Below are positions 43,944 through 64,000 of a stretch of DNA of 64,000 bases, piece by piece. The notes below the pieces were generated by a model, which searched no databases, was not told the DNA's origin, and was given only the letters and a program-made list of their open reading frames with translations. How positions within the stretch are numbered: the first letter of the stretch is position 1; the number at the start of each line of letters is the position of its first letter. This DNA comes from a virus, in IMG/VR virus record IMGVR_UViG_3300045988_183986. One strand, 5' to 3'. A program made the translations under genes and the position numbers.

Positions 43944-44087
43944 CATGTTAGTTGCCCTCCTAATAATGTGAGTGTTCTGTGGTTTTACCACAGCCGGATT
44001 TATATACACCCTTACCTACTCCCTAGTGTGCAGCCTCGATTGTAGATAAGAAAGTATATCAAAACACAAGCAATCAAATTGCATATT

Positions 44088-44120
44088 TACAATATGCCAC
44101 AAAAAGACAGAAAAGTCAAT
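44088..44120 (-). promoter_or_regulatory. degenerate class A-like promoter inside long 5' UTR
   Basis: TTGACTtttctgtctttttgTGGCATATTGT on minus strand. Confidence 0.3.
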
Positions 44121-44322: not shown

Positions 44323-44361
44323 CAAAAAAAAGAGCGGCAGCTCTTTCGAACCACCGCTCTA
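44323..44361 (-). terminator. rho-independent terminator after giant adhesin gene
   Basis: AGAGCGG...CCGCTCT stem followed by TTTTTTTT on minus strand. Confidence 0.5.
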
Positions 44362-44373: not shown

Positions 44374-47300
44374 TTATTCAGCGGAATCATCCTTATGGTT
44401 ATCTTTGTTGTCGTTTTCGTCCTTCTTGCGCTTGTGGTTTACTACCACCAGAGCAGCGACGCCAATGCCAACCATTGCTACCAGCCCAACAATGCTCTGT
44501 GCAAATCCGATACCCGTCTTCTTGTTGCTCGTGAAGATAGAGAAGAGGGAGAAGGGTTTGCCGTCTACCTTGAAGATATCGAGCCAGCCAATCGGCGGGG
44601 TCTTGGGCTTCTCAGTAGGAACAGGGGTCGGAGTAGGCTTCGGGTTGTCGGGAGTCGGAGTCGGTTTAGGCTCGTCAGGCGTTGTGGGAGTAGAGGGTTT
44701 CACAACAGGGACTTTCACCTCGTTGGAAGGTTTCTCTACATCTTCATCAATCGGCTTGGACGGGTCCTTACCATGACCCGGATTCTCGGGGTCTTCGGGA
44801 TTCTGACCCGGAGCCTTAGCGACAGCCACGTTAATGACATCGTGTCCGGCATCCGCGTCAACGGCAACATAAGAATAGGTCAGAGTGAAGGATTCGCCAA
44901 CAGGGATACGAGCAATAGTGAACGTTGTCGTTGCGCTATTGTAAGTATATCCATCACCGTTCTGAGCTTCAATATGGCTTTCGCCGTCATTGTTGTCCTT
45001 TACGGTTACATTGACAAGGTCTACTTCACCAGTATTGGTTACTACCACACGATAATTGATGGTTTCACCGACATTGACTTTCGTCTTGTCAGCACTCTTC
45101 ACAATCGTGAGGCTCTTTTCGAGCGGAACATCCGTTTCCGTACCGGAACCCGGAACTTCCACATCGACCTTGTTGGACGGAATATCCGTATCAGGGTCAA
45201 TCGGTTTCGTCGGGTCTTTACCCTGTCCGGGATTCTCCGGGTCTTCAGGGTTCGTACCGGGAACATGAATCGTCGCTACGTTTTCAAGAATGTGCGTGGT
45301 CACATCGGCGATACCGACAGTATAAGCGTAGTGGACAACCACATCGCCGCCAGCAGGAATCGTGTCGATGGTGAATACACCATTCTCATAGTGATAACCA
45401 GCGCCATCCACTGCGAAAATGCTTCCGGAGAAGTTATTCTCATCAGTCAGAGCAGCATTCTGAATATCGTGGTCTTTGCCATTGTGTACCGTTACGGTAT
45501 AGGTGACAGTCTCACCCAGCTTTGCGACAGTCTTGTTTGCAGACTTCCAGATGGTGACAACGCCATCATCAGGCTTCTTCACATCGACTGTATTGGACGG
45601 GATATTATACTGCTCGCCATCGTGCGTGTACTTAATGGTTGCGGTATTCTCCATAACGCTCTCATCGGTCGTCTCTACCGTATAGGTATAAACGATATCA
45701 AGAGCCTCACCGGCATCCAGATAACCGATAGTCCAAGTACCGTCTCCGTTATAGGTATAGCGGTTAGAACTCTCAGCCGTAACATCACCCGCAAAGTTGT
45801 TATGGTCTGCGACAGTGATATCGTTTACGGTTTTGTCTGTCGTATTCTTCACCGTAATGGTGTAGGTCACAACATCTGTCACCTTAGCGATATACTTATC
45901 GGCATCCTTTTCAACATCGATAGGCGGTGTCGGGTCTTTCACAACAGCAGCGTTCAGAACCTTAGGAGCATCAGCGGTAACTACCACATAGGTGAAGTTA
46001 AGCGTTACGCTCTCGCCAGCCTTTACAGTGCTGATGGTATAGGAGTTGTCGCCGTTATCCGCAACACCATCCATAGGTACGAAGTTGAGCGTTCCGTTGC
46101 CATCGAAGAAGTCTTCGACAACAACATTTTCCGCATCAATCTTGCCCTTGTTGGCGACAGTAACCATATAGTTGAGCGTATCGCCAACCTTGGCTTCTGC
46201 CTTATCAACGGACTTGGTGATTTCGATTACAGGAATCTCTGTTTCGGTTTCAGAGCCGGAAACTTCCACATCAACCTTGTTGGACGGAATCTCCGTATCG
46301 GGGTCAATGGGTTTCTCGGGGTCTTTGCCGTGACCCGGATTATTCGGGTCTTCGGGATTCGTGCCGGGAACATGGATTGTTGCAATGTTTTCGAGAATCT
46401 GCGTGGGCACATCAGCAATTTCAACCGTATAGGTGTAGTGGATAACCACATCACCGCCTGCGGGAATCTTATTGATTGTGAATTCGCCGTTCTCGAAGGT
46501 GTAATCTGCACCTTCAACGCTTACGATTTCGCCAGCAAAGTTGTTGGTGTCTGTCAGACGAGCGTTTTCGATGTCGTGATTCTTTCCGTTATGAACCGTG
46601 ACGGTATAGGTTACAACCTCACCCGGCTCAGCCTTTGTCTTATCTGCAGCCTTGCGGATGGTAACAACACCATCATCGGGCTTCTCGACATCGACGGGGT
46701 TAGAGGGGATATTGTAATCTGTGCCATCCTTGCTGTAAGTCACATTTGCAATGTTTTCGATGACGGTGGCATCCTCAGCCTGCATCGTATAGGTGTAGGT
46801 GATATGGATGGTCTCGCCAGCGGCAATAGTCGGAATAGTCCATGTCTTATTGCCATTGTAAGTGTACTTGTCAGCGTTTTCGGCCTTGATTTCGCCCTTG
46901 AAGTTGTTAGTATCGGTGACAGTTACATTGTCAACAGGCTCAGAAGTGGTGTTCTTCACGGAAATCGTGTAGGTTACAACCTCATCAACCTTTGCAATGT
47001 GCTTGTCGGCTTCCTTCTCGACGTCAACAGGCGGTGTCGGGTCTTTGATTACTGCGGCGTTCAGTACGAGAGGTTCGTCTCCTTCAACTACAACATAGCT
47101 GAAACGAAGCTTTACGCTCTCCCCTGCCTTGACCGTAGAAATAGTGTAGGTGTTGTCTCCGTTATCTGTCACACCATCCATGGCCTTGAAGTTCAGCGTT
47201 CCGTTTCCGTCAAAGAAGTCCTTAATCAGGATATTCTCAGCATCCGCGTTACCGCCGTTCTTGACAGTGACGGTGTAGTTTAGCGTATCACCAATCTTGG

Positions 47301-50300
47301 CAGTAGGCTTATCTACAGACTTGGTAATAGAGATTTCCGGAATCTCGGTCTCAACTTCGGAACCGGGGACTTTCACTTCGACCTTATTGGACGGAATGTC
47401 CGTATCGGGGTCAATAGGTTTATCCGGGTCCTTGCCGTGTCCGGGATTCTCAGGGTCTTCCGGATTCGTGCCGGGCACATGTGCCGTGGCAACATTTTCC
47501 AGAATGTGAGTGGGTACATCTGCAATCTGCACCGTGTAGGTGTAGGTTAGAACGGCGTCTGCACCAGCAGCAATCTTATCGATTACAAAGTGTCCGTCAA
47601 CGAACTTGTAGCCGACACCATTTGTGCCGGTAATCGTTCCAGCAAAGTTGTTGGAATCGCTTACGACCACATTGGTGATGTCATGCGCCTTGCCGTTGTG
47701 AATCGTAACCGTGTAGGTCACGACCTCACCGGGCTCTGCAATCTTCTTGTCACCGCTCTTGACAATCGTAACTTCGCCATCCTTCGGAACAACGACTTCA
47801 ACGGGGTCTGCCTTGATGACATACTCGCCGTCATCGGTCGTGTAGCGAACATCAGCTTTGTTGACCAGTGTAGAGGGGTCGGTAGTCTTCACCGTATAGG
47901 TGTAGAGAATATCGATGCTCTCACCAGCCTTGATGCTGGGGATAGTCCAAGTATGGTTGCCATTGTAGGTGTACTTGGCGTTGTCTTTAGAGGTGATTGC
48001 ACCTGTAAAGTTGTTGGTATCGCTGACCAGCAGGTCGGTAACGGTCTTATCAGTCGTGTTCTTCACCGTGATGGTGTAGTTGACGACTTCATCGACCATC
48101 GCCACATGCTTGTCTGCGGTTTTCTCGATGTCAATGGGAGGAGTCGGGTCTTTCACAACAGCAGCGTTCAGGACCATCGGTGCATCTCCGGCAACGACCG
48201 TGTAAGTGAAGCGGAGCGTAATGCTCTGACCCTTCTCCACATTCGCAACCGTGTAGGTGTAATCACCGTTATCCGTCACACCGTCCATCGGAACGAAGTT
48301 CAGGACACCGTTACCGTCAAAGAAATCCTTGACGATAGCGTTCTTGACTGCCTGTCCGCCAACATTCGTCAGCGTAATCGTGTAGTTCAGCGTATCGCCA
48401 ACCTTGGCTTCCGTTTTATCTACACTCTTAACGATTTCGAGCTTGCCTTCCGGCACATCAACATGCGTGCCGTCACCGGGAACCTCAACATCGACCTTGT
48501 TGGAAGGAATCTCCTCATCAGGGTCGCCGGGGTTCTTGCCGGGGACATGAGCCGTTGCAATGTTTTCAAGAATCTTGGTCGGAACATCGGCAATCTGGAC
48601 TGTGTAGGTGTAACGGACCACTGCGTCACCGCCAGCAGGAATCTTGTCAATGACAAATTCGCCGTTGGTGAACTTGTAGCCAGCGCCATCTACGCCTTCA
48701 ATCTTGCCCGCGAAGTTGTTCGCGTCAGTCAGACGGACATTCTTGATGTCGTAATCCTTACCGTTGTGAATTGTAACCGTATAGGTAACGACCTCGTTCG
48801 GCTCAGCCTTGGTCTTGTCGGCAGTCTTAAAGATGGTAACGACACCATCGTTAGGCTTTTCGACTTCGACGGGGTTGGACGGAATATCGTAGTCAGTACC
48901 GTTGTAGCTATAACGCACATCGGCAGTGTTTTCAATGACAGTTTCATCGCTTGCCTGCATCGTATAGGTGTAGGTAATGTCGATGGACTTGCCGGATTCG
49001 AGCGTTGCGATGGTCCAAGTCTTATCACCGTTGTAGGTGTAGCCCTTGCCATCTTTGCCTTCGATTTCGCCCTTGAAGTTGTTCGTATCGCTTACCAGCA
49101 GATTCGTCAAGGTGTCCTTGGAATTGTTCTTCACCGTAATGGTGTAGGTAACAATCTCATTAACCTTAGCGATATGCTTGTCTGCGCTCTTCACAATATC
49201 CGTGGACGGTTTGGGAGTTGTGATGACTGCCGCGTTCAAAACCTCAGGTGCGTCACCGTCAACCACCACATAGGTGAAGTTAAGCGTTACGCTCTCGCCA
49301 GCCTTGACACTTGCAATCGTGTAGGTGTCATCACCGTTATCGGTGACGCCATCCATAGCCACGAAGTTCAGTGTGCCCTTGCCGTCGAAGAAGTCCTTGA
49401 CCATGACATTCTCGGCATCGCCCTTACCGTTGTTCTTGACAGTAATCGTGTAGTTCAGGGTATCACCGACAGCGGCTTCACTCTTGTCTACACTCTTCGT
49501 CAGAACAAGGTCAGGAATCTTGGTTTCTGTCTCGGAACCCGGAACCTCAACATCGACAGGATTCGAAGGAATCTTCTCATCGTTATCGATAGGCTTATTC
49601 GGGTCTTTACCGTGACCGGGGTTGTTCGGGTCTTCGGGGTTCATTCCGGGAACATCAGCCGTAGCGATGTTTTCCAGAATCTGAGTAGGCACATCACCAA
49701 TTTCAACCGTGTAGGTGTAGGTCAGAGTGACCGAAGCGCCTGCGGCAATCTCAGCGATATGGAACTCGCCGTTCTCGAAGGTGTAATCTGCGCCGTCAAC
49801 ACCAGTGATTTCACCAGCGAAGTTGTTGGCATCAGTTACTACAACATCGTGAACATCGAAGCCCTTGTTGTTGGTAACGGTTACATTGTAGGTGACGACC
49901 TCACCCGGCTTAGCCATCTTCTTGTCCGCTTCTTTGTGGATGGAGACAGTGCCCTTATCGGGTACGACCACATCGACAGTCGGCGTATCAAGTTTCACGG
50001 TATCGCCGTTCTCGGAATACGTCACATCAGCCTTGTTCTCGAGGAGCTTCTCATCATTGCTCTGTACCGTGTAGGTATAGGTGATGTTGATAGTCTCCCC
50101 TGCTCCGATTTCCGGAATCGTCCAAGTGCTATCGCCGTTATAGGTGTACTTATCTGTATTGGCGGCATTGATGCTGCCAACAAAGTTATTGGTATCCTTG
50201 ACAGTGACATTCGTCTTTGCTTTGGTATCGGGGTTATACACGCTGATGGTGTAGGTCACGATTTCATCGACAAATGCGAACTTCTTGTCAGCCGTCTTGG

Positions 50301-53300
50301 TGGGTTCGAGCGGCGGGTCAACGGGCGGTGTCGTGACGACAGCGGCGTTCAGGACCTCAGGCTCATCGCCTTCCACGATAACATAGGTGAAGCGGAGCTC
50401 CATGAATGTACCGGCAGGCAGTTTGTTGATGGTGTAAGTGCCATCACCGTTCACTACAACACCGACAGCCGGGATGTAGTTGAGTTTACCGTGTCCATCG
50501 AAGAAGTCTTCGACCAGAATATTTTTCAGTTCGCCATCGCCAACATTAGACACCTTAACGGTGTAATGCAGCATATCGCCAACAGAAGCACTCTTCTTGT
50601 CTACGAATTTCTCGACTTTCAACTTGCCCTCGGGCGGGTTGACAGGAACAGGTACATCACTGCCGGGAACCTTGACGGTGACCTCGTTAGAAGGCTTCGT
50701 CTTTTCATTCTCAGGAGTCTGGTCTTCGTCAGCGAACCAGTAATGCAGCGTAGCCACATTCTTCAGCTCGTTGTAGGTATCCTGACCCTTACCGGCATCG
50801 GTATTCAGCACAATGTAATCATATTCTACCGTGACAGTCTTGCCAGCCGGAATAGTGCCGACCTTGATGACTGCGGAACCGGCAGATGCAGATTCCAGAG
50901 TACCGTTCTTGACATTCGTGATAACGCCGTTGAAGTTGTTCTTGTCGTGCAGCGCTGCATTCACATAGTCAACAGTGTCATTGTTGTGCATGACGACGGT
51001 ATAATGCACCGTATCGCCGATGTTTGCAATGGCCTTGTCTGCCTGTTTTACAACGGTGGGTCCGACATGTTCCGGCGTGGGAGTTTCGGGGATGACAGGG
51101 ATATCAACCTCATTGGAAGGAATCTTTACCTTGCCGGAATCCGTCACATATGTCATTTCGGCGTTATTGACAAGCATGGCATTGGGAGCATCTTCATTCA
51201 TTACCGTGTAGGTGTAGACAATGTCTACGCTCTCACCAGCGCCGATAGAAGAAATATTCCAGACCTTGTCGCCAATATAGCTTACAACATCAGTGTTTTC
51301 GGCAGGCGTGATAACGCCCGTGAAGTTGTTCGTATCCTTGACCTCAACATTCGTCTTGGTTTCGTTAGTCGTATTGGTAACGGTAATGGTGTAAGTCACC
51401 ACCTCGCCAACTACTACGGTCTGTTTATCTGCCTTTTTCTCGATTTCGGGAATTTCCGGAATCTCGACAGCAGCATTGTTTACGACATCCTTGTCGCCTT
51501 CCTGTACGGTATAGGTGACAGGAATCTCAACGACCTCACCAGCCGCAATTTCTGCGATGGTGAAGGAATGAGTCGCTGCGTCATAGGTGTACTTGTCGGA
51601 ACTTGCAGCATTGATTTCACCAATGCCGTCATTGAAGTCGCGCACAACTACATTCTGAGCAGTCATTGCACCGTTGTTCGTAACGGTAATGGTGTAGTGA
51701 ATGGTATCGCCAATCATCACACTGGATTCAAGAGAAGTCTTCACAACGCGAATGTCGCGGTCAGGCACTTCGCCTACATGGACAGTCTCAGTATCGGGGT
51801 CGCTCGTAACAGTCTTGTTGTCGGGGTTCTTGCCCTCAGCAACAGCCGTATTCACGATGTTACCGTTATCGAGGTTCATGTCCTCTGCCACAGCAGTATA
51901 GACATAAGTGATTTCAACGGAATCGCCTGCGTTCAGCTCAGGAATCATCCACTTGCCGTTTCCGTCATACATCAAATCGCCAGTGTACTTGACAGTGCCG
52001 TTGCCGTTGGATGTATCGGTAACGATAACATTCGTCAGCTTGGTATTGCCACTGTTCTTGACGGTCAGAGTATAGGTTACGGTCGTGTCATTGCCGTTCA
52101 TATCAACGAAGCTCTTGTCAGCGTTCTTTACGATGGTCAGTTCATCACGGAGCACATCAACCTCAACAGGTTTAGAAGGTTCTTCGATGTCCTTGTCACC
52201 CGGAATCTCAGTATCGGGATTCTTGGGAGCGTGAGCAGTAGCTACGTTGATAATCGTTTCGGGGTCACCGTTCTGCACAATATACAGGTAATTCAGAGTA
52301 ACGGAATCACCGATATTCAGAGCAGGAATGGTGAACAGTCTGGTTTCGGGGTTATAGGTATATCCGTCGCCGGTAGAGACGATAAACATACCCAGAGCAT
52401 TGGTGTCATCGGAGACGGTAACATTCGTCATATCGACAGTGCCGTCGTTCGTGACAGTGACCTGATACTTGACGACTTCGCCGGGATAAGCGTGGTCGCG
52501 GTCAGCAGACTTGACAATCGTCAGGTGCTTGTAGTACAGCGGCACGATTACTTCGTTGGAATCGACAGGTTTCTCAGGAATAGTCGGGTCTTCGCGAGCA
52601 GGAATCGTTGCGGTAGCAATGTTATCCAGCTTGCCGTTTGCGAGGTCATCTGCAACAACCGTGTACTTATAGGTGATGGTTACGGACTTACCAACGCCAA
52701 GGCTGGTGATTGTCCATGTTCCATCATCGTTGACACGATAGCCGAAGTGGAGCTTCGTGTTCTCGACAGGCTCGCCCATGAAGTTGTTCGTATCCTTTAC
52801 GACAACATTTTCAAGCTTCGTGTTGCCCGTATTGGTGACTTTCAGCGTGTAAGTGACGACATCACCTACGCCAGCCTCAGTCTTATCAGCACTCTTTTCG
52901 ATGGTCAGATTCTGACGGATGATTTCCACATCAACATCAGGAGTCTCAACCAACCAATCCTTGTTAGGCTCGGTATAGTTCGGAGTGGTGCTGCCATCAG
53001 GGTTCTCAGTATAGCTCTCGACTACCTTCATATCGGTAATCTTGGCGTTGTTTTCGAGGATATCGTTGTTGTTGGTGCCGTGGTCGGTCGGGTCTACCGT
53101 GTAGGTATAGGTGAACGTTACAGCATTGGTATGGGTTTCATCGCGCAGATGGGAAATCTCTGCGATAACGAACTCGCCCTTCTCTGCATCATAGGTCACA
53201 CCGTTTGCCTGAGACAGGACAGGAACACCAACGAAGTTGTTGGTATCTTTAACGATGACGTTGTGCAGGTCATGACTGGTCGCGTTCGTAACGGTAATCG

Positions 53301-56300: not shown

Positions 56301-59300
56301 GACCATTTACGGAATTATGGGTAATCATATCGGTCAGGGTGAAATCCTGAACCTTATCAGCATCGCCCAGTTCCTTCTGCCAGCCAGTGACTTCCAGCAG
56401 CATCGGACGAGGTTTGATAGTCAGAACACCGGGCGTGTAGTTCGCAATCGTATAGTTATAACCGCCATCTGCGTTTTCACGAGGTACGAGAATCGTATGC
56501 TCTTCGCAGTAACTCTTATCGCCATACAAGTAATTGGAACCGACATCGGTGTACTTATTGTAAGTCAGGTTGATGTAATCGCTCAGAGTATTCTTTGCGG
56601 TTTCAAGAACCTTTGCGGTTGCGCCATCGTTATTCTTCAAAGCAACATCAGCAGTATCGCCGTGCTTCAAGCCAACAACGGTCAGCGTGTAGTCGTTTTT
56701 GTTATCTTCGCCGTAGTAACGCTCCTGATTACCGAATACGATTGTCAACGGGACAGGCGTAATGGTCATCTTAGCGTCGTTCGTTTCGACGATATAGTTG
56801 CTTGCTGTGCTCTTTTCGTAAGAGATACGGATGGTATAGCCTTCGTCACGGACATTCTCACCGCTGTCACGAACTGCCTTGATGCCGAGCATTTCGCTGG
56901 TAGGCTTAATGATTTCGCCATCGACAGTCCACTTCAATGCGGGTTCCGTGCCGCCGTATGCCTTCGTTGCATCGAGAGCCGCAATGCGAATCAGACGAGG
57001 ATGTACTTTCAGAACATTGGACTCGTAAACGAGTTCGTAGTTGGAAACTACCTGTCCTTCACTGTTCGTGACGGTCTTGATGCCAAGAGTATTGCCGTAA
57101 CCGGTGTTTTCGTTCACGGATACAGGATATCCGTTTACGGGAACATGGGTATGCGGATGGTCATCGTCATGATAATGCTCATGACCCTTGTGCATTTCGT
57201 TGTATTTCTCCAAGCAGTAAGCGCATTCTTCTTCGGGAACATCCGTCTGATAGATTACATCACTGCTCTGTGTAGCGGTTGTCAGATAAGGCAGATTAGA
57301 AGTGCCGTTCTTGAATGCCAGAGCGGTGCGGGAAGCGCCGTTTACGACCTCAACCACATTACCGATGGTATCATTACCAATCAGATGCATGTTGTTGTAA
57401 TCAACGGTAGCGTCATCGCCCAGAACGGTCCAGTTGTTCTCGTCCGAAACATCCAGTTCATTGCCTTGGTCATCTGTGCCAAGAACCTTGAATGTGGAGT
57501 TGAAGAACGGGTTCGTCGTACCGTAAATCTTCTGGCTTTCGTCAACGGAAATCATAATCTTGCGGGGTTTGACCTCGATGGAGCCGGGGTCTTCCGTGAC
57601 AACATAGTTCTTCAACACATCATAGTTGAATTCGTTCAGACCAATGTAAGATACGGGGTAAGAACCAGCATCTGTTGTCTCACTCGGTACTACATTGTAA
57701 ACGAACTTGCTCTGATAGTTGTTTGTTTTCTTCGCTTTCAGGTCGAGTTTTTCATCGTCCTGTGCAGCAGTCTTATGGTCTTCGACCAGACCTTCCATGG
57801 TCAGCCAGCTGTCAGAACCCTTATTCCAGTAGTAGACATCGTCTGCATACGGAAGCTTGATGTTCTTGAAACCGTGTCCATAAGTGGTGCTTACGCTCTT
57901 GACCTGCGCACGCAGCGTCGTACGGTAAATACCACCGCTGAAAGTCTTGTCTGCGATATAGTAGTCGTTGTAGTTGTTATTCACAAGGTACATTTCATTG
58001 TTCTGCTCAATGTCACGTACCAGTGCGTTCGTATCATCGATATCCTGTACAGTGTACTCAAATTCGATGTTTACGGTACCGCCGACCGGAATCGTGTCAA
58101 TGTAGAACTCTGTGCCCTGCTGGTTCATACGAATGCCATTGGTGGATTTCAGAGTGATGGGGCCATTGCCTGCAAATCTGCTCTTGAGACGCAGGTTCTG
58201 GATAGCAACAGGAGCAACATAGTTGTTCTGCGCGGCCAGACCATATCCAGTATCCTTGTTCGTAACTGCAATCGTAACAGTCATCTTCTGACCAACCTGC
58301 GGGGTGGTCGTGCTGTAGCTGTACTTTACAGAATACGGCAGATGGCGAATCGTATTCGTCGAAAGACCATTGTAACGGTCTTCTTTGATGACACCATTGT
58401 CGCCGTTTGCATCATACCCGGTCAGCTGCTCGCCAGCATTGCTGTCAGCATAAGAACCAACATAGGTCTGAGCATTCAGTTCAACGGAATCGTAGTTGGT
58501 GATATTATCAATATAGATATTTCCCTGCCCTTCTTCACCAATATTGGCGTTGTAGTAGGAATCATATACCTTGATGTTGTTCGGATTCACTACCGTGTTC
58601 TGGTAGTTATCCTGCTCGGTCTTGGTATAGCGGGTAATATCGATGTTTTCCTGTTTACCAGCAAGAATCATTTCATATGCCTGCTCGATAGTCACATTCT
58701 GATTATCGTAGACAGTCGTATCGGTCAGATACTTGCCGTTTCCGATATCATTGGAGTTGCCATCGTAGTTCCACTTGTATTTGTTCACATCATGGTACTG
58801 ACTGTGAACATACAGAGGACGAGGATTGATGGTACCAGTGAAATCTTCACTTGCAATATAATAGTTGTCAAACGGGTTGTTAATCAGTTCAAGAATCGTA
58901 ACGGTCTTGATACTGTGCAGACCCGTATGGATGGACTCTCTGAAACTCGTTTTTGCGAAGTCCTCAGGAGCATAGTTTTCGCAATAATAGCCGTAAGCCA
59001 GTGTGCTGTTCAGCGCGACAGTATCGCCGTGAACAATACCGGAATCAGCAGTTGCTGCTTTGATTTTAATATCAGATACCTTTGCGGTGCTGATATTGTC
59101 GTAAATCTTATTGTTGTCATAGCTGTAAAGATGCAGCGGGCGCGGATAAATATCGAAGTATACGACATTACCGTTGCCGGATACATATTCATCAGGTGTA
59201 GTGCTTTCGCCACGGACTACATAAGTCTTGCCGGGCTTCGTGTTCTCCCAGCAGAAAGTAACTTCGTACTTGCCCGTGTAGGTTGCCGTAGCAGTGTAGG

Positions 59301-62300
59301 AACCGGTACGAACGAGAGGCTTCTTCTTGCTATCGGTAGTAGCGTTTGTAGGATATGTGATGTTGGGAGATTCGTTGTTCGAATAGGTGATGTTTACGCC
59401 GCGCAGGATTTCCTGTTCATCGATACCTGCATCGGTATCGCCGTCCCATACAACGTGTGCGGTAACAGTCAACTGGTTGCCGTCGTACATCTTATTAGCA
59501 ACAGTCAGCATGACCTTGGCACGAGTAGGAGTGCATTCGTTTGCATCCTCGAAGCCAATATCCATTGCGTTCTTGCCAACGCGACGATACAGACGCTTAT
59601 TCAGGTCAACAACCTTGATTTTTGCACGACCAGCCTGGCCAATACCGGAACCGGCACCGTCATTCAGCTGGTTTGCACCAGTGACGTTTGCTTTAATGAT
59701 GATGTTGCCGTTGTCAAGGTTTGTACCAACAGAAGCGGCATAAGAAGAACCACGCAATGCACCATCGGTAGAAGCAGACTGCCAACCAGAACCGCCGCCG
59801 TTTTCGTGCAGTGTGTTGTTGTAGCCTTCCTCGTCTTCTCGCTGCATTTTGATATCACTGCTGTGGGTGCCACTGTAAGTCCAGCCACAGATATCGCCAT
59901 GATGGTATTCGTAGCCATCGCTGAAGACCTTGTCTTCCTTTAATGCACAGTGATAACGCTGACCACTGTAGTCTGAACCAGAACCGCCGACACCACGCTC
60001 GGTGTATCCATTGCCGGAGATAATTGCAGCACCGGAACCGCCGCCAGCAACGCCGAACATCGACGAGCCGTCACCGTAGTTCTTCAGCTGTCCGTCACCA
60101 ATAAGGCCGAATGCAACCGTGGTAGCGCCACCACCACCGCCAAAGCCTATGGGAGAATTGCTGTGGTAGCTGTGGTCAGGGTCGCCTCCCCCTTTATAGC
60201 AGTCATAGAACACTGCGCCGACACCACCGGAACCACCGCCGTTATAGCCACCGGAACCACCGGAACCACTGCCGGTAGAACCGCCACCGGAACCACCACC
60301 GGAACCGCCACCGCCTGCACCGCCAGCGACAAAGTAGAGGGTCGTGCCTTCCTTAATGTCTGCTGTGATAATGGTGTGGCTGCCGGAGTTGCCGCTGATA
60401 CCATCTGTCATACTTGCATTGCCGCCGCCAGCACCCCACAGGTCAATCTGATAGGTTGCATCGAACGGAGCGGTCCAAGAAGAAGTGGGATTGTTTCCGT
60501 CATTGGCTTTGAAGGACTTGTCGGCCGCACGAACATTCTTTTCATCGATGTAGAAGAAAACCTGTTCGTTGGTGCCGTCAAACTCTTCCATGTCGTAGCA
60601 ATGATACTGGATAGCATTGCGCCAGAACCATTGCCAGATTTCCTTCGGGTAAGAATAATCGGACCATAATGCATAGCCGTGGTCCAGATAAGGCGCATAG
60701 TCCTCGTTGTTCTTGTCCAGATATCCGCGTTCATCGAGGGAAATGCCAAGTTCAGCCATCGTCTTGCCCTGAACATCAATCTGAGAAGGATTGCCGTTCA
60801 TGTCATAACGAGTAACGGTTGTCATTTGTCCACGATACTGAGTACCGAGATTGACGCTCAGATGGTCACTCTGGTTAAACACAGTACGAGAAGTGTCTCT
60901 GTGCTTGCCATACGGGAACTCATTCACAATCTGATAGCGGGACATAATGTACCGAAGTCCATTAGGCGCTTCAATTGTCAGTTCGGGATACATGAAAATA
61001 GAGTGCTTATCAACGCCGCAACTAACAAGATTGCGCTCGTTTGCATGGATACTGATATTGTAATCCAGCCACAACTCTGCACCAGTGTCGGTGTTATCTT
61101 CATCGATACCGCCGTTCACATAGTCAAAGTTATGAGCAAGGGTATTTGTGATGGTCTGACTCTTCAGTTTCGTGCTGTTGTAGCCGCGAATGTATTCCAG
61201 ATACGGCTTGCACTGGAAATAGAAGTGCTCAGTACCGAAGTCCATCGGGTTCGTTGCGGATTCAATGTGCAGGCTCGTGGTAATGCTCCACTTAGCATAT
61301 GCACTGTTGATGTCAAACGGCTGACCATTCAACATCGTATCCTCAACGGGTTTGATATCATCAATGGTGATGTAGGCGGTGAACTTGCCGAACGGAGAAC
61401 CGGAATGCTCAGTTTCGATTGCGTCCACGACCTGCTTCATCACAGAACTGTCATCTGTATTGATGTCGTATCTGGTTTTGACGATATTTGCCCAGTCTTT
61501 GTAGTTTTCGGTAGTCAAACCGTTACCGTTGTTAGCGTACCCGTTGATATTGATGGGGTTGATGACGGGCTTATAATCGGTAGATTCCGAATTCAAGTCG
61601 TCTTGGAAGCCCCACTGCAATACAGGGATAAGGATACGGTTTCCGGATTCTGTCAATTTGCTGGGAGAGAATGTGATAGTCGTTGTATAAACGGCCACGT
61701 TCTTATCAGAAATCAACGGGTTATTGGAATCGCCTCTGCTGGCATTCCAGTTATCCACTTGGTCTTGCGTTGTCTCAACAGACCAGTAATTCTGACCAAA
61801 ATCGCCAGTCGCATCGCCCTCGCTGTTATGCTCCTGCATCATCAATGCACGGGCTTCCAGCATAGTTGCGGAAACGAAAGGTGCATCGACCTGCAACAAG
61901 CCATAACGGGAAGTGTCGAATCCTGCGTTGTCAGCATCGCCGATTGCGCTGTAGGAGTTCTCGACCTTGGTTCTCTTTTCGTTAAAGCGATAGCTTGCAA
62001 CGATACGGAAATAATATCCGGACCAGTTGTAATCTGCCGCGTGCAGGGTAAGGGTGATAGTAGTGTGTTTCTGAGCACACTGCTGGTCAGTGAAACCATC
62101 AGGACGCCAGAAATCGGCAGGCAGCCATTTGTTGTCATGAATCATACTTGCGGTCTCTTTCCCCTTTGCGAGGGTATCGACCGTATGTGCTTCAATGTCA
62201 ACCTTGTTTACCTGACTATTATCTACGGTATTCAATGTATAAGTACCGCCGAATGTGACGGATGTGGCAAGAGTCTGCCAATCGTCATCATAGGGGTCTT

Positions 62301-64000
62301 TGTACTGAACATCGTAGCTGTAGCCCTTATCATCAAGGCCCTTCCAGTAATCTGTTTCAAATACGAAGGTGGCTTCGTCCTGAGTCATAACACGCTGATT
62401 CGGTGCCTGCGTCATGGACATGGGGCGCTCTTCGATTTGAATGATACCGGAAGCTTCCGGAGTGATTACGCCGGGGTCGATGGTGGAATAAGTCTTACCC
62501 TCAACCTCGTAGTCTGTACGAAGCTGAATAGCGTTTCCTGTATATGCCAGCATTTGCAGCTGTACATCCACGGAACTGTGCGGGTAATTGTATACACCAT
62601 CATTGCCGTCGTGGAATACCGGCGTTTTGATGATACCTGTTACGGCACCGTCTTCGGTAGTGAACTGACCGTAATGGCCAATCTTGACCCAGTCGCTCAG
62701 AGCATTATTGGTATTGCGCAGGTCAACCACGCGGTAATACCATGTTACGGATTCATTGCTGATGGGCTGATTGTAGATGATACCGGAACCTTCGAGAACC
62801 TTAGTGGTCTCGCCTTCCCAGTAACGGTAGTTCTCAATAGGTGTTGCTTCGATTGTCAGCAGTTCCAGAGGAACCGTTTCGCAGTCGTTCCAGAAATGAG
62901 GAGGAACCTTTGCAACGATAGGACCGTATTTGGTGACCTCATTGCCAGCCTTGTCATATACGCGGGCACGAAGAATCGTCTTACCGCCTACATAGATACA
63001 TGGCAGGTTAGAAATACAATACTGGTCTACGTTGTTGACTACACAGCTGAAATCGTCGCCCGGCTGTAATAGTGCCGTGTTATCCTCGTACCGGATATGA
63101 ACGGTATATCCCTCGTGAACCTGACCATCATTGAACAACTTTGCGTCGCTCAGCTTGCCGTAGATACGAGCGATACCGGTGGTACGAACGGACGGAGAGC
63201 TGTTACCGCTGTCCTTAAAGACAGTGTCCCAGCCTTTCAGTCTATCAGTACCAAGGTTCCAGTCGTTGCCGTCTCCGGTACGGTATGCACCCAAATCACC
63301 GGTGGTGTTATCGAACAGAGCACCGTCTTTGGGAACTTTTACATCGAAGTATTTGCTGTTCCAGTGACCTGTGAAGTTCTTGATGGGCTTCCAAGTCGTG
63401 GAATCAAAGCCCAGCTTCGTCAGGTCGAGGTCTTCCATCAGTTCGTAGCAATCGCTCAGAGGATACCAGTAGCTGCCGCCATTGGCGAGAGCTGTCAGAA
63501 TCTTCTTGGCGTTTGCTGCATTGACACGATGGACGAAGTGCGTCATCTGCTGGTCGGCTTGGTCAGCGGCACAGACTTCACACTGCTTGCGCTGAGAAAT
63601 CCACATCAGGGTGTTGACGCAAAGTTGCATCTCCTCAGAAGAAGCGTGGTTGATTTGACGACCACCTACTTCAATCGGCAAGTGACCAATCTGGTTCATA
63701 ACAAAGTTGCCGGAACCAGCCAGATAGAAATTGTTGGTACCATTGCGTCCATCGACGGTAGGCTCATACAACTTGCCGAGTCCAGCATTTGTAAACACGC
63801 TAGAGCATCCATTGTATTGAACCCAGATATCATCGAATGCGACCTGACCATTACTGTGCGTCAGAGCAGCAGGAATCGTCTGCCCTACACTGAACTTATA
63901 AGGCCAGTTGGTTGGTGTACGATGCTTGATGTCGGGGTTGACCATCGCCTCTTCGTATGTAAAACCGCCGTTAGAACGGATACGTAAGGAGGTGTTGCCG
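44374..64000 (-). CDS. giant cell-wall-anchored adhesin, 5' end outside window (>6,540 aa): Gly-rich domain + MBG repeats + ~18 DUF11/CnaB-type repeats + N-K-K-T-G sorting signal
   Basis: ORF 44374..63945 extends without a stop to the window edge, so the true N-terminus and signal peptide are upstream. GAGGG/GGSGGG region. MBG motifs (KxYGxxDP). Repeats of type LTIEKSADKTEAGVGDVVTYTLKVTNTGN (DUF11). C-terminus SNKKTGIGFAQSIVGLVAMVGIGVAALVVVNHKRKKD. Confidence 0.85.
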   Translation of the reverse strand, partial: GNTSLRIRSNGGFTYEEAMVNPDIKHRTPTNWPYKFSVGQTIPAALTHSNGQVAFDDIWVQYNGCSSVFTNAGLGKLYEPTVDGRNGTNNFYLAGSGNFVMNQIGHLPIEVGGRQINHASSEEMQLCVNTLMWISQRKQCEVCAADQADQQMTHFVHRVNAANAKKILTALANGGSYWYPLSDCYELMEDLDLTKLGFDSTTWKPIKNFTGHWNSKYFDVKVPKDGALFDNTTGDLGAYRTGDGNDWNLGTDRLKGWDTVFKDSGNSSPSVRTTGIARIYGKLSDAKLFNDGQVHEGYTVHIRYEDNTALLQPGDDFSCVVNNVDQYCISNLPCIYVGGKTILRARVYDKAGNEVTKYGPIVAKVPPHFWNDCETVPLELLTIEATPIENYRYWEGETTKVLEGSGIIYNQPISNESVTWYYRVVDLRNTNNALSDWVKIGHYGQFTTEDGAVTGIIKTPVFHDGNDGVYNYPHSSVDVQLQMLAYTGNAIQLRTDYEVEGKTYSTIDPGVITPEASGIIQIEERPMSMTQAPNQRVMTQDEATFVFETDYWKGLDDKGYSYDVQYKDPYDDDWQTLATSVTFGGTYTLNTVDNSQVNKVDIEAHTVDTLAKGKETASMIHDNKWLPADFWRPDGFTDQQCAQKHTTITLTLHAADYNWSGYYFRIVASYRFNEKRTKVENSYSAIGDADNAGFDTSRYGLLQVDAPFVSATMLEARALMMQEHNSEGDATGDFGQNYWSVETTQDQVDNWNASRGDSNNPLISDKNVAVYTTTITFSPSKLTESGNRILIPVLQWGFQDDLNSESTDYKPVINPININGYANNGNGLTTENYKDWANIVKTRYDINTDDSSVMKQVVDAIETEHSGSPFGKFTAYITIDDIKPVEDTMLNGQPFDINSAYAKWSITTSLHIESATNPMDFGTEHFYFQCKPYLEYIRGYNSTKLKSQTITNTLAHNFDYVNGGIDEDNTDTGAELWLDYNISIHANERNLVSCGVDKHSIFMYPELTIEAPNGLRYIMSRYQIVNEFPYGKHRDTSRTVFNQSDHLSVNLGTQYRGQMTTVTRYDMNGNPSQIDVQGKTMAELGISLDERGYLDKNNEDYAPYLDHGYALWSDYSYPKEIWQWFWRNAIQYHCYDMEEFDGTNEQVFFYIDEKNVRAADKSFKANDGNNPTSSWTAPFDATYQIDLWGAGGGNASMTDGISGNSGSHTIITADIKEGTTLYFVAGGAGGGGSGGGSGGGSTGSGSGGSGGYNGGGSGGVGAVFYDCYKGGGDPDHSYHSNSPIGFGGGGGATTVAFGLIGDGQLKNYGDGSSMFGVAGGGSGAAIISGNGYTERGVGGSGSDYSGQRYHCALKEDKVFSDGYEYHHGDICGWTYSGTHSSDIKMQREDEEGYNNTLHENGGGSGWQSASTDGALRGSSYAASVGTNLDNGNIIIKANVTGANQLNDGAGSGIGQAGRAKIKVVDLNKRLYRRVGKNAMDIGFEDANECTPTRAKVMLTVANKMYDGNQLTVTAHVVWDGDTDAGIDEQEILRGVNITYSNNESPNITYPTNATTDSKKKPLVRTGSYTATATYTGKYEVTFCWENTKPGKTYVVRGESTTPDEYVSGNGNVVYFDIYPRPLHLYSYDNNKIYDNISTAKVSDIKIKAATADSGIVHGDTVALNSTLAYGYYCENYAPEDFAKTSFRESIHTGLHSIKTVTILELINNPFDNYYIASEDFTGTINPRPLYVHSQYHDVNKYKWNYDGNSNDIGNGKYLTDTTVYDNQNVTIEQAYEMILAGKQENIDITRYTKTEQDNYQNTVVNPNNIKVYDSYYNANIGEEGQGNIYIDNITNYDSVELNAQTYVGSYADSNAGEQLTGYDANGDNGVIKEDRYNGLSTNTIRHLPYSVKYSYSTTTPQVGQKMTVTIAVTNKDTGYGLAAQNNYVAPVAIQNLRLKSRFAGNGPITLKSTNGIRMNQQGTEFYIDTIPVGGTVNIEFEYTVQDIDDTNALVRDIEQNNEMYLVNNNYNDYYIADKTFSGGIYRTTLRAQVKSVSTTYGHGFKNIKLPYADDVYYWNKGSDSWLTMEGLVEDHKTAAQDDEKLDLKAKKTNNYQSKFVYNVVPSETTDAGSYPVSYIGLNEFNYDVLKNYVVTEDPGSIEVKPRKIMISVDESQKIYGTTNPFFNSTFKVLGTDDQGNELDVSDENNWTVLGDDATVDYNNMHLIGNDTIGNVVEVVNGASRTALAFKNGTSNLPYLTTATQSSDVIYQTDVPEEECAYCLEKYNEMHKGHEHYHDDDHPHTHVPVNGYPVSVNENTGYGNTLGIKTVTNSEGQVVSNYELVYESNVLKVHPRLIRIAALDATKAYGGTEPALKWTVDGEIIKPTSEMLGIKAVRDSGENVRDEGYTIRISYEKSTASNYIVETNDAKMTITPVPLTIVFGNQERYYGEDNKNDYTLTVVGLKHGDTADVALKNNDGATAKVLETAKNTLSDYINLTYNKYTDVGSNYLYGDKSYCEEHTILVPRENADGGYNYTIANYTPGVLTIKPRPMLLEVTGWQKELGDADKVQDFTLTDMITHNSVNGQQKLGAGSRITDASVVVNPDKVPIVFNLVRAEGEEVGSYPVYSTPQDRQIGNLAANDQKQLELDNPNYDFEYRYANDLIVKRQGLMITVDDKVRYYGDRVNRFYDGSTDYTYHVFKVENGEAVEITAEEAGINTNSFTFTHLDTQTSSSGTYKDCISLSGVHSTIYDDDDITITAGNLTIIPRPVSVIAADNTKVYGDADPELKYTLHDGVRGEDGNYYIEYANGPVLTEKEGADVPVQPGDLEGTGVTREPGEDVWTGEHSFGKAYAINANDISPVSKDGITNYVITMENGNFTITPAELVVTVKGGYSKTYGEENPAFDADITGFKRDDTKETVLNGELGFATLCFDLSDAGKYIVTAGNNNEDAVNPDCVVLEDGEEHIGSTFEVKSNTNFEKNYVIRYVNGDITVNPKELIVRIDHKVKTYGTADPAFTFHYEDNAGNVIGLIDPENSPLNVELYRTKGENVVRGDVTAADSLNKWGTTLYDGDYLISAKYDTSNKNYAVTVYDGSLKIIPATLTVTVDGGYKTTYGDEIPEFTYSITGFVGRDVKDETGTGIKDDESKVSGTATMYCNDNAGNPVTNKTKVGNYPINYDRQQLVADKSNYKFIYVGGDLTIGKKPIHVKADDQQKVYGEKDPDPLTWTITDPEELVNPGDEDFFDITTKRPGADTDDGEQVGKYPITIDGTDPSGNYEIITTPGTLTIVPATIVVTVIDDEKYFGEDNPTPNVTITGYKRGDTIDDIGGKDALKTKTDAEKWSPVGEYPVSAKDSTFHNPNYDFVYIDGKLTVKPLIINIKAEDDRKTYGDNDPDKFNVSYTLTNEKDEPYTPDKDLRDYIDRALNLDAARVPGENVRTENPGYSIVPTYTEVDNIEIGTVTPGHFFIDPREVTITANSAEKVYDGTPLTEPGYTYAPELVDNDLLGIHDKMDSVTVTGSQTEVGSSKNVPSDAVIINTEDGSGSNANYIIKYVDGTLTVRDKEIVSIEKSADRERATDYDVIRYTITVTNATSHDLHNVIVKDTNNFVGVPVLSQANGVTYDAEKGEFVIAEISHLRDETHTNAVTFTYTYTVDPTDHGTNNNDILENNAKITDMKVVESYTENPDGSTTPNYTEPNKDWLVETPDVDVEIIRQNLTIEKSADKTEAGVGDVVTYTLKVTNTGNTKLENVVVKDTNNFMGEPVENTKLHFGYRVNDDGTWTITSLGVGKSVTITYKYTVVADDLANGKLDNIATATIPAREDPTIPEKPVDSNEVIVPLYYKHLTIVKSADRDHAYPGEVVKYQVTVTNDGTVDMTNVTVSDDTNALGMFIVSTGDGYTYNPETRLFTIPALNIGDSVTLNYLYIVQNGDPETIINVATAHAPKNPDTEIPGDKDIEEPSKPVEVDVLRDELTIVKNADKSFVDMNGNDTTVTYTLTVKNSGNTKLTNVIVTDTSNGNGTVKYTGDLMYDGNGKWMIPELNAGDSVEITYVYTAVAEDMNLDNGNIVNTAVAEGKNPDNKTVTSDPDTETVHVGEVPDRDIRVVKTSLESSVMIGDTIHYTITVTNNGAMTAQNVVVRDFNDGIGEINAASSDKYTYDAATHSFTIAEIAAGEVVEIPVTYTVQEGDKDVVNNAAVEIPEIPEIEKKADKQTVVVGEVVTYTITVTNTTNETKTNVEVKDTNNFTGVITPAENTDVVSYIGDKVWNISSIGAGESVDIVYTYTVMNEDAPNAMLVNNAEMTYVTDSGKVKIPSNEVDIPVIPETPTPEHVGPTVVKQADKAIANIGDTVHYTVVMHNNDTVDYVNAALHDKNNFNGVITNVKNGTLESASAGSAVIKVGTIPAGKTVTVEYDYIVLNTDAGKGQDTYNELKNVATLHYWFADEDQTPENEKTKPSNEVTVKVPGSDVPVPVNPPEGKLKVEKFVDKKSASVGDMLHYTVKVSNVGDGELKNILVEDFFDGHGKLNYIPAVGVVVNGDGTYTINKLPAGTFMELRFTYVIVEGDEPEVLNAAVVTTPPVDPPLEPTKTADKKFAFVDEIVTYTISVYNPDTKAKTNVTVKDTNNFVGSINAANTDKYTYNGDSTWTIPEIGAGETINITYTYTVQSNDEKLLENKADVTYSENGDTVKLDTPTVDVVVPDKGTVSIHKEADKKMAKPGEVVTYNVTVTNNKGFDVHDVVVTDANNFAGEITGVDGADYTFENGEFHIAEIAAGASVTLTYTYTVEIGDVPTQILENIATADVPGMNPEDPNNPGHGKDPNKPIDNDEKIPSNPVDVEVPGSETETKIPDLVLTKSVDKSEAAVGDTLNYTITVKNNGKGDAENVMVKDFFDGKGTLNFVAMDGVTDNGDDTYTIASVKAGESVTLNFTYVVVDGDAPEVLNAAVITTPKPSTDIVKSADKHIAKVNEIVTYTITVKNNSKDTLTNLLVSDTNNFKGEIEGKDGKGYTYNGDKTWTIATLESGKSIDITYTYTMQASDETVIENTADVRYSYNGTDYDIPSNPVEVEKPNDGVVTIFKTADKTKAEPNEVVTYTVTIHNGKDYDIKNVRLTDANNFAGKIEGVDGAGYKFTNGEFVIDKIPAGGDAVVRYTYTVQIADVPTKILENIATAHVPGKNPGDPDEEIPSNKVDVEVPGDGTHVDVPEGKLEIVKSVDKTEAKVGDTLNYTITLTNVGGQAVKNAIVKDFFDGNGVLNFVPMDGVTDNGDYTYTVANVEKGQSITLRFTYTVVAGDAPMVLNAAVVKDPTPPIDIEKTADKHVAMVDEVVNYTITVKNTTDKTVTDLLVSDTNNFTGAITSKDNAKYTYNGNHTWTIPSIKAGESIDILYTYTVKTTDPSTLVNKADVRYTTDDGEYVIKADPVEVVVPKDGEVTIVKSGDKKIAEPGEVVTYTVTIHNGKAHDITNVVVSDSNNFAGTITGTNGVGYKFVDGHFVIDKIAAGADAVLTYTYTVQIADVPTHILENVATAHVPGTNPEDPENPGHGKDPDKPIDPDTDIPSNKVEVKVPGSEVETEIPEISITKSVDKPTAKIGDTLNYTVTVKNGGNADAENILIKDFFDGNGTLNFKAMDGVTDNGDNTYTISTVKAGESVKLRFSYVVVEGDEPLVLNAAVIKDPTPPVDVEKEADKHIAKVDEVVTYTISVKNTTSEPVDNVTVTDTNNFKGEIKAENADKYTYNGNKTWTIPTIAAGETIHITYTYTMQAEDATVIENIANVTYSKDGTDYNIPSNPVDVEKPDDGVVTIRKAADKTKAEPGEVVTYTVTVHNGKNHDIENARLTDTNNFAGEIVSVEGADYTFENGEFTINKIPAGGDVVIHYTYTVEIADVPTQILENIATIHVPGTNPEDPNNPGHGKDPEKPIDPDTEIPSNKVDVEVSGSETETEIPVIEITKSVDKAEAKVGDTLNYMVTVANKGKIDAENVVVEDFFDGNGTLNFVPMDGVADNGDNSYTISTVKAGESVTLNFTYVVVTADAPKVLNAAVVKDPTPPIDVEKDADKYIAKVTDVVTYTITVKNTTDKTVNDITVADHNNFAGDVTAESSNRYTYNGDGTWTIGYLDAGEALDIVYTYTVETTDESVMENTATIKYTHDGEQYNIPSNTVDVKKPDDGVVTIWKSANKTVAKLGETVTYTVTVHNGKDHDIQNAALTDENNFSGSIFAVDGAGYHYENGVFTIDTIPAGGDVVVHYAYTVGIADVTTHILENVATIHVPGTNPEDPENPGQGKDPTKPIDPDTDIPSNKVDVEVPGSGTETDVPLEKSLTIVKSADKTKVNVGETINYRVVVTNTGEVDLVNVTVKDNNDGESHIEAQNGDGYTYNSATTTFTIARIPVGESFTLTYSYVAVDADAGHDVINVAVAKAPGQNPEDPENPGHGKDPSKPIDEDVEKPSNEVKVPVVKPSTPTTPDEPKPTPTPDNPKPTPTPVPTEKPKTPPIGWLDIFKVDGKPFSLFSIFTSNKKTGIGFAQSIVGLVAMVGIGVAALVVVNHKRKKDENDNKDNHKDDSAE

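Follow-up and report, generated by a model that had tools for sequence, protein, structure and literature searches.

The minus strand of IMG/VR record IMGVR_UViG_3300045988_183986 (hereafter the window, i.e., the whole stretch of 64,000 nucleotides that was analysed) runs off its edge in an open reading frame (ORF) that probably encodes a giant surface protein of about 7,323 amino acids, without its first 782 codons, which would form a wall-linked fibre on bacteria that carry a conjugative megaplasmid of the "Hodor" type. Read from the N-terminus, the protein is composed of a signal peptide, an acidic linker, a head (~740 conserved residues and variable modules), a glycine-rich domain (GRD), an array of MBG repeats, 23 CLIPPER domains, a Pro-rich linker, the pentapeptide NKKTG, a hydrophobic helix and a basic tail (Table 1). 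The protein family itself is already known from the Hodor preprint, whose main text describes the giant protein only as "S-layer and/or MBG" and says nothing of DUF11 or a glycine-rich domain; the trigger factor encoded on the same plasmids figures there as a chaperone, without mention of a lipoprotein signal (PMC12934698). New here are a GRD of the ALK/LTK type, a stalk of 23 CLIPPER domains with its residue triad, an N-x-K-T-G signal shared by two giant proteins and the reading of the trigger factor as a lipoprotein, and also an unannotated head family together with its spread over other conjugative elements. We regard this as an increment of anatomical detail on a system that was described only recently; it does not overturn current ideas, and the domain map provides experimental handles (a binding fragment, a sortase peptide and stalk residues to mutate).

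Starting at base 63999, the minus-strand frame is free of stops for 6,541 codons and the two remaining frames at the window edge are riddled with them; by a simple calculation, a frame of this length would stay open by chance with a probability of ~(61/64)^6541, i.e., ~1e-136. In the ORF listing the gene appears as 44374-63945, as the listing begins at the first ATG within the window. An exhaustive search of 1.84 billion representative proteins recovered an ortholog of 7,323 residues (P0043) that is colinear with the window ORF at an offset of +782 (window residue numbers plus 782 give full-protein numbers), with 93 mismatches in 6,541 residues and no indels (98.6% identity). Judged by this alignment, the full protein is about 7,323 residues long and the window ORF is without the first 782, which bears out the preliminary description, made from the window alone, of a protein of more than 6,540 residues whose start lies outside. 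The missing residues open with a Sec signal peptide, MQKGKTWQRVASAVLAVMMTMSTFSSTIAYA/AEP (the slash marks the end of the signal here and below), followed by an acidic linker rich in Pro, Thr and Glu. The same signal peptide start is found in relatives with 79-85% identity (P0001 and L001, the latter a contig end of a Peptococcaceae metagenome-assembled genome and the same relative again as P0001).

By its gene content, the window appears to come from a conjugative megaplasmid of the Hodor type whose hosts are human-gut Bacillota. Hodors (Yuan et al., bioRxiv February 2026; PMC12934698) are conjugative megaplasmids of the human gut, 211-389 kb in size, with a GC content of 47.1% or 44.6%, that encode Rep_3, ParA/B/M, a type IV secretion system (T4SS) and, frequently, TnpB. 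Their surface module consists of an uncharacterized giant protein (7,309-7,704 amino acids) and three downstream genes, among them that of a protein of ~2,642 residues; a signal peptide and a cell-wall sorting signal are present in each of these two giants, a class B sortase adjoins the series hyp-SecY-SecG-SecE-trigger factor, and the genes are transcribed in stool, the giant gene being co-transcribed with its three neighbors (PMC12934698). The assignment is made because the window matches every listed feature of this surface module as well as the GC content (46.7% here, 44.6-47.1% in Hodors). The two giant proteins have 7,323 and 2,651 residues here, MBG repeats of the YGX type occur in both elements, and the sortase B with the sec and trigger factor block, ParM, TnpB and the human gut origin are held in common. 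The contigs recovered here are 270-350 kb long and their presence in thousands of samples agrees with the 9,349 samples that contain Hodor-related reads, all Hodor samples being from human gut or wastewater (PMC12934698). It counts against this identity that shared features, as opposed to an alignment with the published Hodor genomes, are its basis. Owing to a flotillin sequence that is residue-identical in 1,909 blocks of the public assembly collection, on contigs of 272-350 kb and never on any above 1 Mb, the element is, as far as such sequence recurrence can tell, extremely widespread and conserved.

Two other origins were considered and rejected. A phage origin was dropped, as 10 neighboring ORFs had no PHROGs match and megablast of window positions 1-25000 against plasmid and phage collections returned no match. 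Identity with the "Inocles" of oral Streptococcus was rejected on GC content (24-32% against 46.7% here) and on their Streptococcus host. Inocles resemble the present element in being extrachromosomal and hundreds of kilobases in size, with a sortase of their own, secretion-related genes and surface proteins that have signal peptides and sorting motifs, but the sortase is of class A, it is accompanied by LPXTG-like proteins and by a signal peptidase, and the paper makes no mention of SecY (PMC12340149). The two elements are unrelated.

The head belongs to a protein family of its own. Its core is 40-45% identical among ~60 metagenomic proteins, with many invariant residues (motifs include NFYL.G.GN...NQ.GH.P and SQRKQCE.CAA.Q.), and a profile search of 5.8 billion proteins with this core retrieved unannotated relatives only. 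Around another head motif, GHDTMYAYAG, there may conceivably be a ThuA-like alpha/beta fold, which is no more than an impression of ours. The variable part that follows the core is probably made of beta-sandwich modules and terminates, just before the GRD, in the motif W.W.WRNA..Y.CYD...VFFYIDE. Proteins of the head family are found on other plasmids and integrative elements, where they adjoin sortases, Rep_3, relaxases, ArdA or ArdC: among the more distant ones, those of L012 are encoded by a Rep_3 plasmid, next to genes for a sortase and an S26 signal peptidase, those of L013 by an integrative element resembling Tn916 that also has ArdA and Mob_Pre, and those of L008 have a membrane segment and an NlpC/P60 hydrolase fused to them, with a relaxase, ArdC and ParAB nearby. 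Given this distribution and the variability of the relatives (L008, L010, L012, L013 and L014, the second and last of which are described below), the head is, on comparative grounds, a module that belongs to the mobile elements of gut Bacillota, with the stalk as a variable spacer.

Between head and stalk lies a module that we consider a well-supported, if divergent, member of the GRD superfamily (PF12810) beneath Pfam's detection limit. The preliminary description had called the segment TAPFDATYQIDLWGAGGG and the glycine runs after it PF12810-like; the module was found where it had been placed, and the reading was upheld by several routes. Homologs came from the exhaustive search of representative proteins (a word-indexed protein search with the same module gave 4 matches), and P0043 residues 1932-2262 match it at 98% identity. 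In phmmer comparisons, module residues 14-198 matched the bacterial proteins P0046-P0049 with E-values of 7e-10 to 3e-7, and PF12810 ALK_LTK_GRD is matched by those very stretches of the proteins at 54-78 bits (cut-off 24.5). A multiple alignment (MAFFT) displays the full motif series, C-terminal motifs included, from F.AP..G.Y.i.lWGA.GG through L..G..lY..VGG.G, GGYNGGG, GGGGGAT, DGQLKNY, V.VAGGG and GGGGGW to the closing G.A.I.V strand. When the four-member subfamily of the window was compared with canonical members by hhalign, the result was a probability of 98.8% (E 8e-17), along the N-terminal half only (~137 columns). A mixed GRD profile run against the PDB reached Caenorhabditis elegans SCD-2 and human ALK and LTK at E-values of 2e-9 to 1e-2, with weak unrelated matches only below them, and the best 21 PDB matches of a Foldseek search with the AlphaFold2 (AF2) model of the module were all GRD structures of ALK, LTK or SCD-2 (E 1.5e-5 to 3e-2). 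Further, in the syntenic relative L014 the gene after the head is annotated with PF12810 (precomputed annotation) and is 36% identical to the module of the window (E 5e-11). The module thus shares the motif series of the ALK/LTK GRD (PF12810; PDB 7LIR, 7N00, 7NWZ, 7NX0), and the profile, profile-profile and Foldseek links all lead to that domain and its bacterial relatives. In the solved ALK/LTK structures, a lattice of polyglycine-II helices rests upon a TNF-like beta core. It differs in having no Pfam match, in a subfamily-specific insert of ~85 residues and in being housed in a bacterial surface fibre and not in a receptor kinase, and the cytokine-binding role is not transferable.

Several results weigh against the picture of head and GRD as the ligand-binding end of a fibre. 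The direct Pfam test of the GRD failed, PF12810 giving zero matches on the module even at E<=10 (cut-off 24.5 bits), an NCBIfam scan of the module was empty too, and the profile of the window's own four-sequence subfamily (A2) found no PDB match and did not reach ALK. The AF2 model has a low predicted local distance difference test score (pLDDT 60.8, below 50 in the insert; predicted TM-score 0.65), and its TM-scores against ALK are only ~0.25, at a root-mean-square deviation of ~10 A. A relative with 49% identity (P0044) scores only 17.3 bits with PF12810, and phmmer of the module against PDB sequences returned artificial Gly-Ser linkers only. For the head, there was no Pfam, NCBIfam or PDB-sequence match, even at E<=10 in a scan of 1,149 head residues, and a profile of its core found nothing among PDB sequences. 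The AF2 model of the core (801 residues, alignment of 11 sequences) is unusable at pLDDT 48; a Foldseek search with it against the PDB gave generic beta-sandwiches only, with a best E-value of 0.08. Finally, no domain of known binding specificity was found in any library for the protein that bears head and GRD. A role of the GRD as a binding module is plausible solely by analogy.

It is from its architecture that we call the protein an adhesin. Head and GRD would bind a ligand that most likely sits on other bacterial cells, where binding would promote the contact needed to transfer the plasmid, or else on a surface in the gut. We lean slightly towards bacterial cells, owing to the spread of the head on mobile elements and its fusion to wall hydrolases, and a role at the gut surface or in a biofilm is about equally likely. 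One possibility, to which we give less than even odds, is that the fibre serves mating or aggregation, binding Bacillota recipients and thereby promoting conjugative spread, and the aggregation substance PrgB of pCF10 offers an analog for such a role. Head-family proteins on other conjugative or mobilisable elements, some of them with the NlpC/P60 fusion and the relaxase, ArdC and ParAB neighborhood, speak for it. The gene is also conserved across the two Hodor groups, deeply diverged as these are, and is regarded in the preprint as important for plasmid spread (PMC12934698); because the groups have few genes in common and those of the two giant proteins are among them (PMC12934698), these proteins are probably central to plasmid persistence or spread. 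Yet there are no T4SS genes within this window (they and the replication genes would fall outside it), and chromosomal adhesins that bind hosts often contain MBG, CLIPPER and GRD domains as well. An adhesin for host, mucus or dietary particles, or a biofilm fibre that aids gut colonisation, is possible as well, though we are somewhat doubtful of it. Fibrillar-adhesin architecture is frequent in host-binding bacteria (PMC12617251), the Hodor samples are the gut and wastewater ones already mentioned, and for the oral Inocle a help in colonisation by way of its sortase and LPXTG-like proteins has been proposed (PMC12340149). However, Pfam and NCBIfam scans detected no lectin, mucin-binding or matrix-binding domain in the head.

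Behind the GRD, a transition region of YDG-type MBG-like units contains one degenerate DUF11-like domain (residues 1895-2004, window 57988-58317), both recognized by weak matches of self-built hidden Markov models (HMMs); the L014 relative bears PF18657 YDG, flagged as faint. In the MBG array proper, Pfam MBG_2 (PF18676) scored 213.7 bits (cut-off 25) in 7 stretches, and an HMM made from the protein's own repeats gave per-copy E-values of 1e-14 to 1e-27. The MBG assignment of the preliminary description, with its minimum of 10 units, was therefore borne out by 12 clear and 2 weak copies. Its DUF11 assignment proved right too (PF01345, 785.9 bits against a cut-off of 24.6), but the count had to be raised from ~18 to the 23 stretches found; DUF7507 scored 551.2 bits in 20 stretches. 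The borders also had to be redrawn, with DUF11 at 44791-53343 and not at 44650-51800, and with the clear MBG copies at 53344-57570.

DUF11 and DUF7507 have been renamed CLIPPER and CLIPPER_2 and are isopeptide stalk domains of fibrillar adhesins; a 2025 crystal structure of DUF11 (PDB 9IFR) contains an intramolecular Lys-Asn isopeptide bond that is Asp-catalysed, with Lys715, Asp748 and Asn806 as the residues involved (PMC12617251). When the 23 copies are aligned, they yield at the 80% level the consensus K..DK...YT..V.N...N....D...N.A. The Lys of the first strand, an Asp ~34 residues further on and an Asn ~88-91 residues from the Lys are each kept in at least 80% of the copies, i.e., the predicted Lys/Asp/Asn triad is preserved in the 23 stalk domains and, from sequence alone, each domain would lock itself by a Lys-Asn isopeptide bond. 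The last ~15 domains are arranged as five copies of a three-domain unit of 369 residues (1,107 bp). These copies are spaced by 1107, 1107, 1068 and 1107 bp and have a DNA identity of 68-80% and a protein periodicity of 146, 102 and 121 residues.

In its tandem DUF11 and DUF7507 domains in mid-protein, its conserved Lys/Asp/Asn residues, its signal peptide, its distal non-repeat region and its sorting region, the protein is similar to the CLIPPER fibrillar adhesins (PMC12617251), and, of the marks of a fibrillar adhesin (an adhesive region, a surface anchor, a signal peptide and a stalk of repeats), a signal peptide (seen in the orthologs) and tandem stalk domains are found. Unlike them, it has 23 copies in a three-domain super-repeat, combined with an MBG array and a GRD, and no recognised adhesive domain was found in it. 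Such a stalk may present head and GRD ~100-200 nm from the cell, an estimate of ours that assumes ~4 nm per immunoglobulin (Ig)-like domain.

At the C-terminus, a Pro/Thr/Lys-rich linker that likely spans the cell wall is followed by SNKKTG, IGFAQSIVGLVAMVGIGVAALVVV and NHKRKKDENDNKDNHKDDSAE. A similar arrangement closes the product of the next gene downstream, the neighboring MBG protein of the preliminary description, which proved real: it has 2,651 residues here, was called at 2,647-2,651 residues in six further contigs, begins with the signal peptide MQKPRKRFLSAIVAVAMCLSQFAPVTAYA/VE and ends in VVNYKTG (NYKTG at 36144-36158), VGFGADIIVPVIVVVALIGVGAFVIV, KKKK and a charged tail. In both giant proteins, N-x-K-T-G thus leads into [VI]GF, a helix and a tail rich in Lys, the C-termini being otherwise dissimilar, and of only 4 matches to N.KT[GN] in all six frames (128,000 residues) 2 stand directly before the helices of the giant proteins. 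As class B sortases typically read Asn-first motifs, e.g., NPKTG and NPQTN (PMC11987632), N-x-K-T-G is a plausible, though Pro-less, variant of a class B sorting motif. The plasmid encodes a candidate anchoring enzyme, a class B sortase homolog, for which phmmer against PDB sequences returned 9 significant matches, all of them class B sortases (E 5e-12 to 7e-7); this sortase would cut after the Thr of N-x-K-T-G and link the fibre to peptidoglycan. In the described class B systems (Bacillus anthracis SrtB-IsdC with NPKTG, Staphylococcus aureus SrtB with NPQTN; PMC11987632), as in the candidate motif here, an Asn-first motif with Thr at P1 and Gly at P1' precedes a helix and basic residues, and the sortase is found here on the same replicon. 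In contrast to them, P3 is Lys or Tyr and not Pro, and the substrates would be giant fibres and not a small haem-binding protein.

A different kind of anchorage has to be weighed at this point, i.e., a membrane-tethered fibre that is held by its C-terminal helix, the N-x-K-T-G being without sorting function. The giant S. aureus protein Ebh is reported to be anchored by a C-terminal helix with a cytoplasmic tail. Wall sorting is called into question by a number of observations, most of which would suit a tether: no LPXTG exists in the sequence, neither tail matches an NCBIfam sorting-domain model, and NKKTG and NYKTG, when set against NPxTG, are without the Pro (P3 is Lys or Tyr). The charged cytoplasmic tails after the helix are long (21-24 residues) and acidic, which is atypical for sortase substrates, and some relatives have no membrane anchor. 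The sortase gene, moreover, is 33 kb away from the giant gene and its product is not matched by the Pfam Sortase model. Nevertheless, we consider a mere membrane tether rather unlikely, as an identical N-x-K-T-G-[VI]-G-F stands before the helix in two dissimilar C-termini, a sortase homolog with the His, Cys and Arg kept is encoded beside the sec genes, and the Hodor preprint reads cell-wall sorting signals in both proteins (PMC12934698).

Relatives of the locus illustrate how variable the fibre is behind its head. L010, at ~75% DNA identity, has a giant gene shortened to 1,688 residues, which directly joins homologs of window 30488-29631 and 15029-14532 and then the SecY-SecE-trigger factor-sortase block (L010 7933-12999 corresponds to window 61355-63982, 29631-30488 and 9985-15029). 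All that lies between the head and the Dam-proximal genes is absent from it, and the ParM region is also gone. By this comparison, L010 is a natural deletion variant, and both the stalk and the second giant gene can be lost. In L014 (10001-18931, 34% identity) the head ends at 1,769 residues and a separate protein of 1,205 residues with GRD and YDG parts starts 4 bp on; it has no membrane anchor and closes with a conserved Cys-containing end domain, which is common to it and an 889-residue protein of L012. The GRD and YDG gene of L014 is followed by Dam and then by a ParM-like gene, and in another relative (P0004) the head and the GRD and YDG parts form one ORF.

Opposite the two giant genes there are very long plus-strand ORFs, 47590-59943 (+) with 4,117 residues and 37695-42593 (+) with 1,632 residues. 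Because domain matches and orthologs are all on the minus strand, these are shadow ORFs that stem from the biased codon use of the repeats. That the giant gene itself could be an artefact (a pseudogene, collapsed or expanded repeats, or a shadow ORF) is extremely improbable despite these long opposite ORFs and the truncated or split gene of certain relatives, since every Pfam domain match falls on the minus-strand frame, transcription has been reported (PMC12934698), and an independent assembly (P0043) reproduces every repeat without a gap, while the super-repeat copies are too dissimilar in DNA (identities as given above) for repeat collapse or expansion to be likely.

The secretion genes of the element stand in one minus-strand block (9972-14033: sortase B, a trigger-factor-like protein, SecE, a SecG-like protein and SecY) that is remote from any ribosomal operon and is followed in this order by the "hyp" gene, with zf_Tbcl; the sortase, trigger factor and sec genes are syntenic in L010. 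The trigger-factor-like protein matches FKBP_C at 60.5 bits and Trigger_C at 21.9 bits, and the tig model solely at positions 108-371 (170 bits against a cut-off of 180). It has no N-terminal ribosome-binding domain and no GFRxGxxP motif, and the LTAC lipobox of its lipoprotein signal is kept in the L010 counterpart (18995-20167). It probably acts outside the membrane, as PrsA does, and not on the ribosome, and the lipoprotein signal on this "trigger factor" alters where the chaperone should be sought. The SecY is at most 45% identical to those of plasmids and phages, which is uninformative on its origin.

An accessory Sec system, which is akin to the present case in that an extra SecY is encoded on a replicon together with very large surface adhesins, was considered and rejected. 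Unlike the SecY2 of accessory Sec (SecA2/SecY2), the SecY here is canonical (330 bits), with only 149.6 and 147.6 bits for the SecY2 models (cut-offs 249.6 and 353). None of the SecA, Asp or glycosyltransferase families, SecA2 included, was found among the scanned ORFs of the window and no serine-rich repeats were seen.

We propose that the precursor would be exported via Sec, possibly through the plasmid's own SecYEG, and would fold outside the membrane with the aid of the lipoprotein FKBP/trigger-factor-like foldase. It is conceivable, if on the speculative side, that all these parts make up a self-contained surface-display line of the megaplasmid and work otherwise than in the published reading, in which case a lipid-anchored extracellular FKBP foldase would work outside a plasmid SecYEG, a private class B sortase would read N-x-K-T-G, and the GRD and ~740-residue head of the fibre would recognise recipients across classes of Bacillota; as a whole, we hold this to be somewhat unlikely.

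Table 1 Features of the window (coordinates in window positions; residue numbers are those of the window ORF unless stated otherwise)
Feature	Position	Strand	Remarks
Giant surface-protein gene	44374-63999	-	5' end cut by window edge; 6,541 codons, stop 44374-44376
Conserved head core, C-terminal 458 residues	62626-63999	-	Residues 1-458; core is P0043 440-1240
Variable head part	60508-62625	-	Residues 459-1164; homologs 32-34% identical; no family match
Divergent ALK/LTK-type GRD (PF12810 superfamily)	59599-60486	-	Residues 1172-1467
Transition region	57571-59574	-	Residues 1476-2143; YDG-type MBG-like units; weak self-built HMM matches
MBG (YGX-type) array	53344-57570	-	Residues 2144-3552; 12 clear and 2 weak copies
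DUF11/DUF7507 (CLIPPER) Ig-like stalk	44791-53343	-	23 domains; residues 3546-6403
Five-copy super-repeat	45127-50625	-	Direct repeats; 1,107 bp (369 residues), three CLIPPER domains each
Pro/Thr/Lys-rich linker	44596-44790	-	Read from translation
Sorting-signal-like C-terminal tail	44377-44526	-	NKKTG at 44512-44526; 24-residue hydrophobic helix; charged tail led by KRKK
Terminator-like hairpin	44331-44360	-	13-bp stem and T-run, 14 nt past stop codon
Second giant surface protein	35991-43946	-	2,651 residues; next gene downstream; MBG array
Flotillin (FloT-like, SPFH/Band 7)	31224-32759	-	
Phage-type Dam methylase	29037-29555	-	
ParM/Alp7A-like actin	24209-25468	-	
TnpB (IS605 OrfB / Cas12f-like)	15863-16966	+	Complete; sole long plus-strand gene in that part
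Sec-gene block (SecE/SecG-like/SecY)	12175-14033	-	
SecY	12693-14033	-	TIGR00967, 330 bits (cut-off 253.6)
SecG-like protein	12423-12677	-	Two helices; PF03840, 18.4 bits, under cut-off
SecE	12178-12426	-	PF00584, 33.5 bits (cut-off 22.7)
Trigger-factor-like FKBP foldase	10955-12118	-	Lipoprotein signal MKKNAKMILAVISAACIALTAC/SK (...AACIALTAC/SK)
Class B sortase homolog	9972-10943	-	N-terminal membrane helix; His (IFGHS), Cys (LSTCSG), Arg (TRF)
PIN7 protein	6994-7662	-	
DUF1281_C (Api92-like) protein	3996-4793	-	
Small radical-SAM protein	2231-3016	-	

Downstream of the giant gene, the strong terminator-like hairpin is at odds with the reported co-transcription with three downstream genes (PMC12934698) and is a further point against the match with the Hodor surface module; read-through past it is possible. 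An extended -10 promoter-like site (44091-44119, minus strand) precedes the gene for the 2,651-residue protein. Between this gene and the flotillin gene there are three small genes (33124-35862, minus strand), one for an acidic lipoprotein (lipobox FVGC), one for a membrane protein with several passes and one for a 401-residue protein that has a membrane helix at its C-terminus, and these are probably the co-transcribed "neighbour genes" of the preprint. Beyond the accessory genes of Table 1, most remaining ORFs of the window could be placed in no Pfam or PHROG family. In two relatives, the giant gene has directly upstream of it a divergently transcribed pair composed of an AAA_15/AAA_21 ATPase and RloB (L001 5360-7314 and L010 5665-7619, both on the minus strand). 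This pair looks like a defence system of the OLD or abortive-infection type, judging by its families, and the same pair probably sits just past base 64000 of the window.

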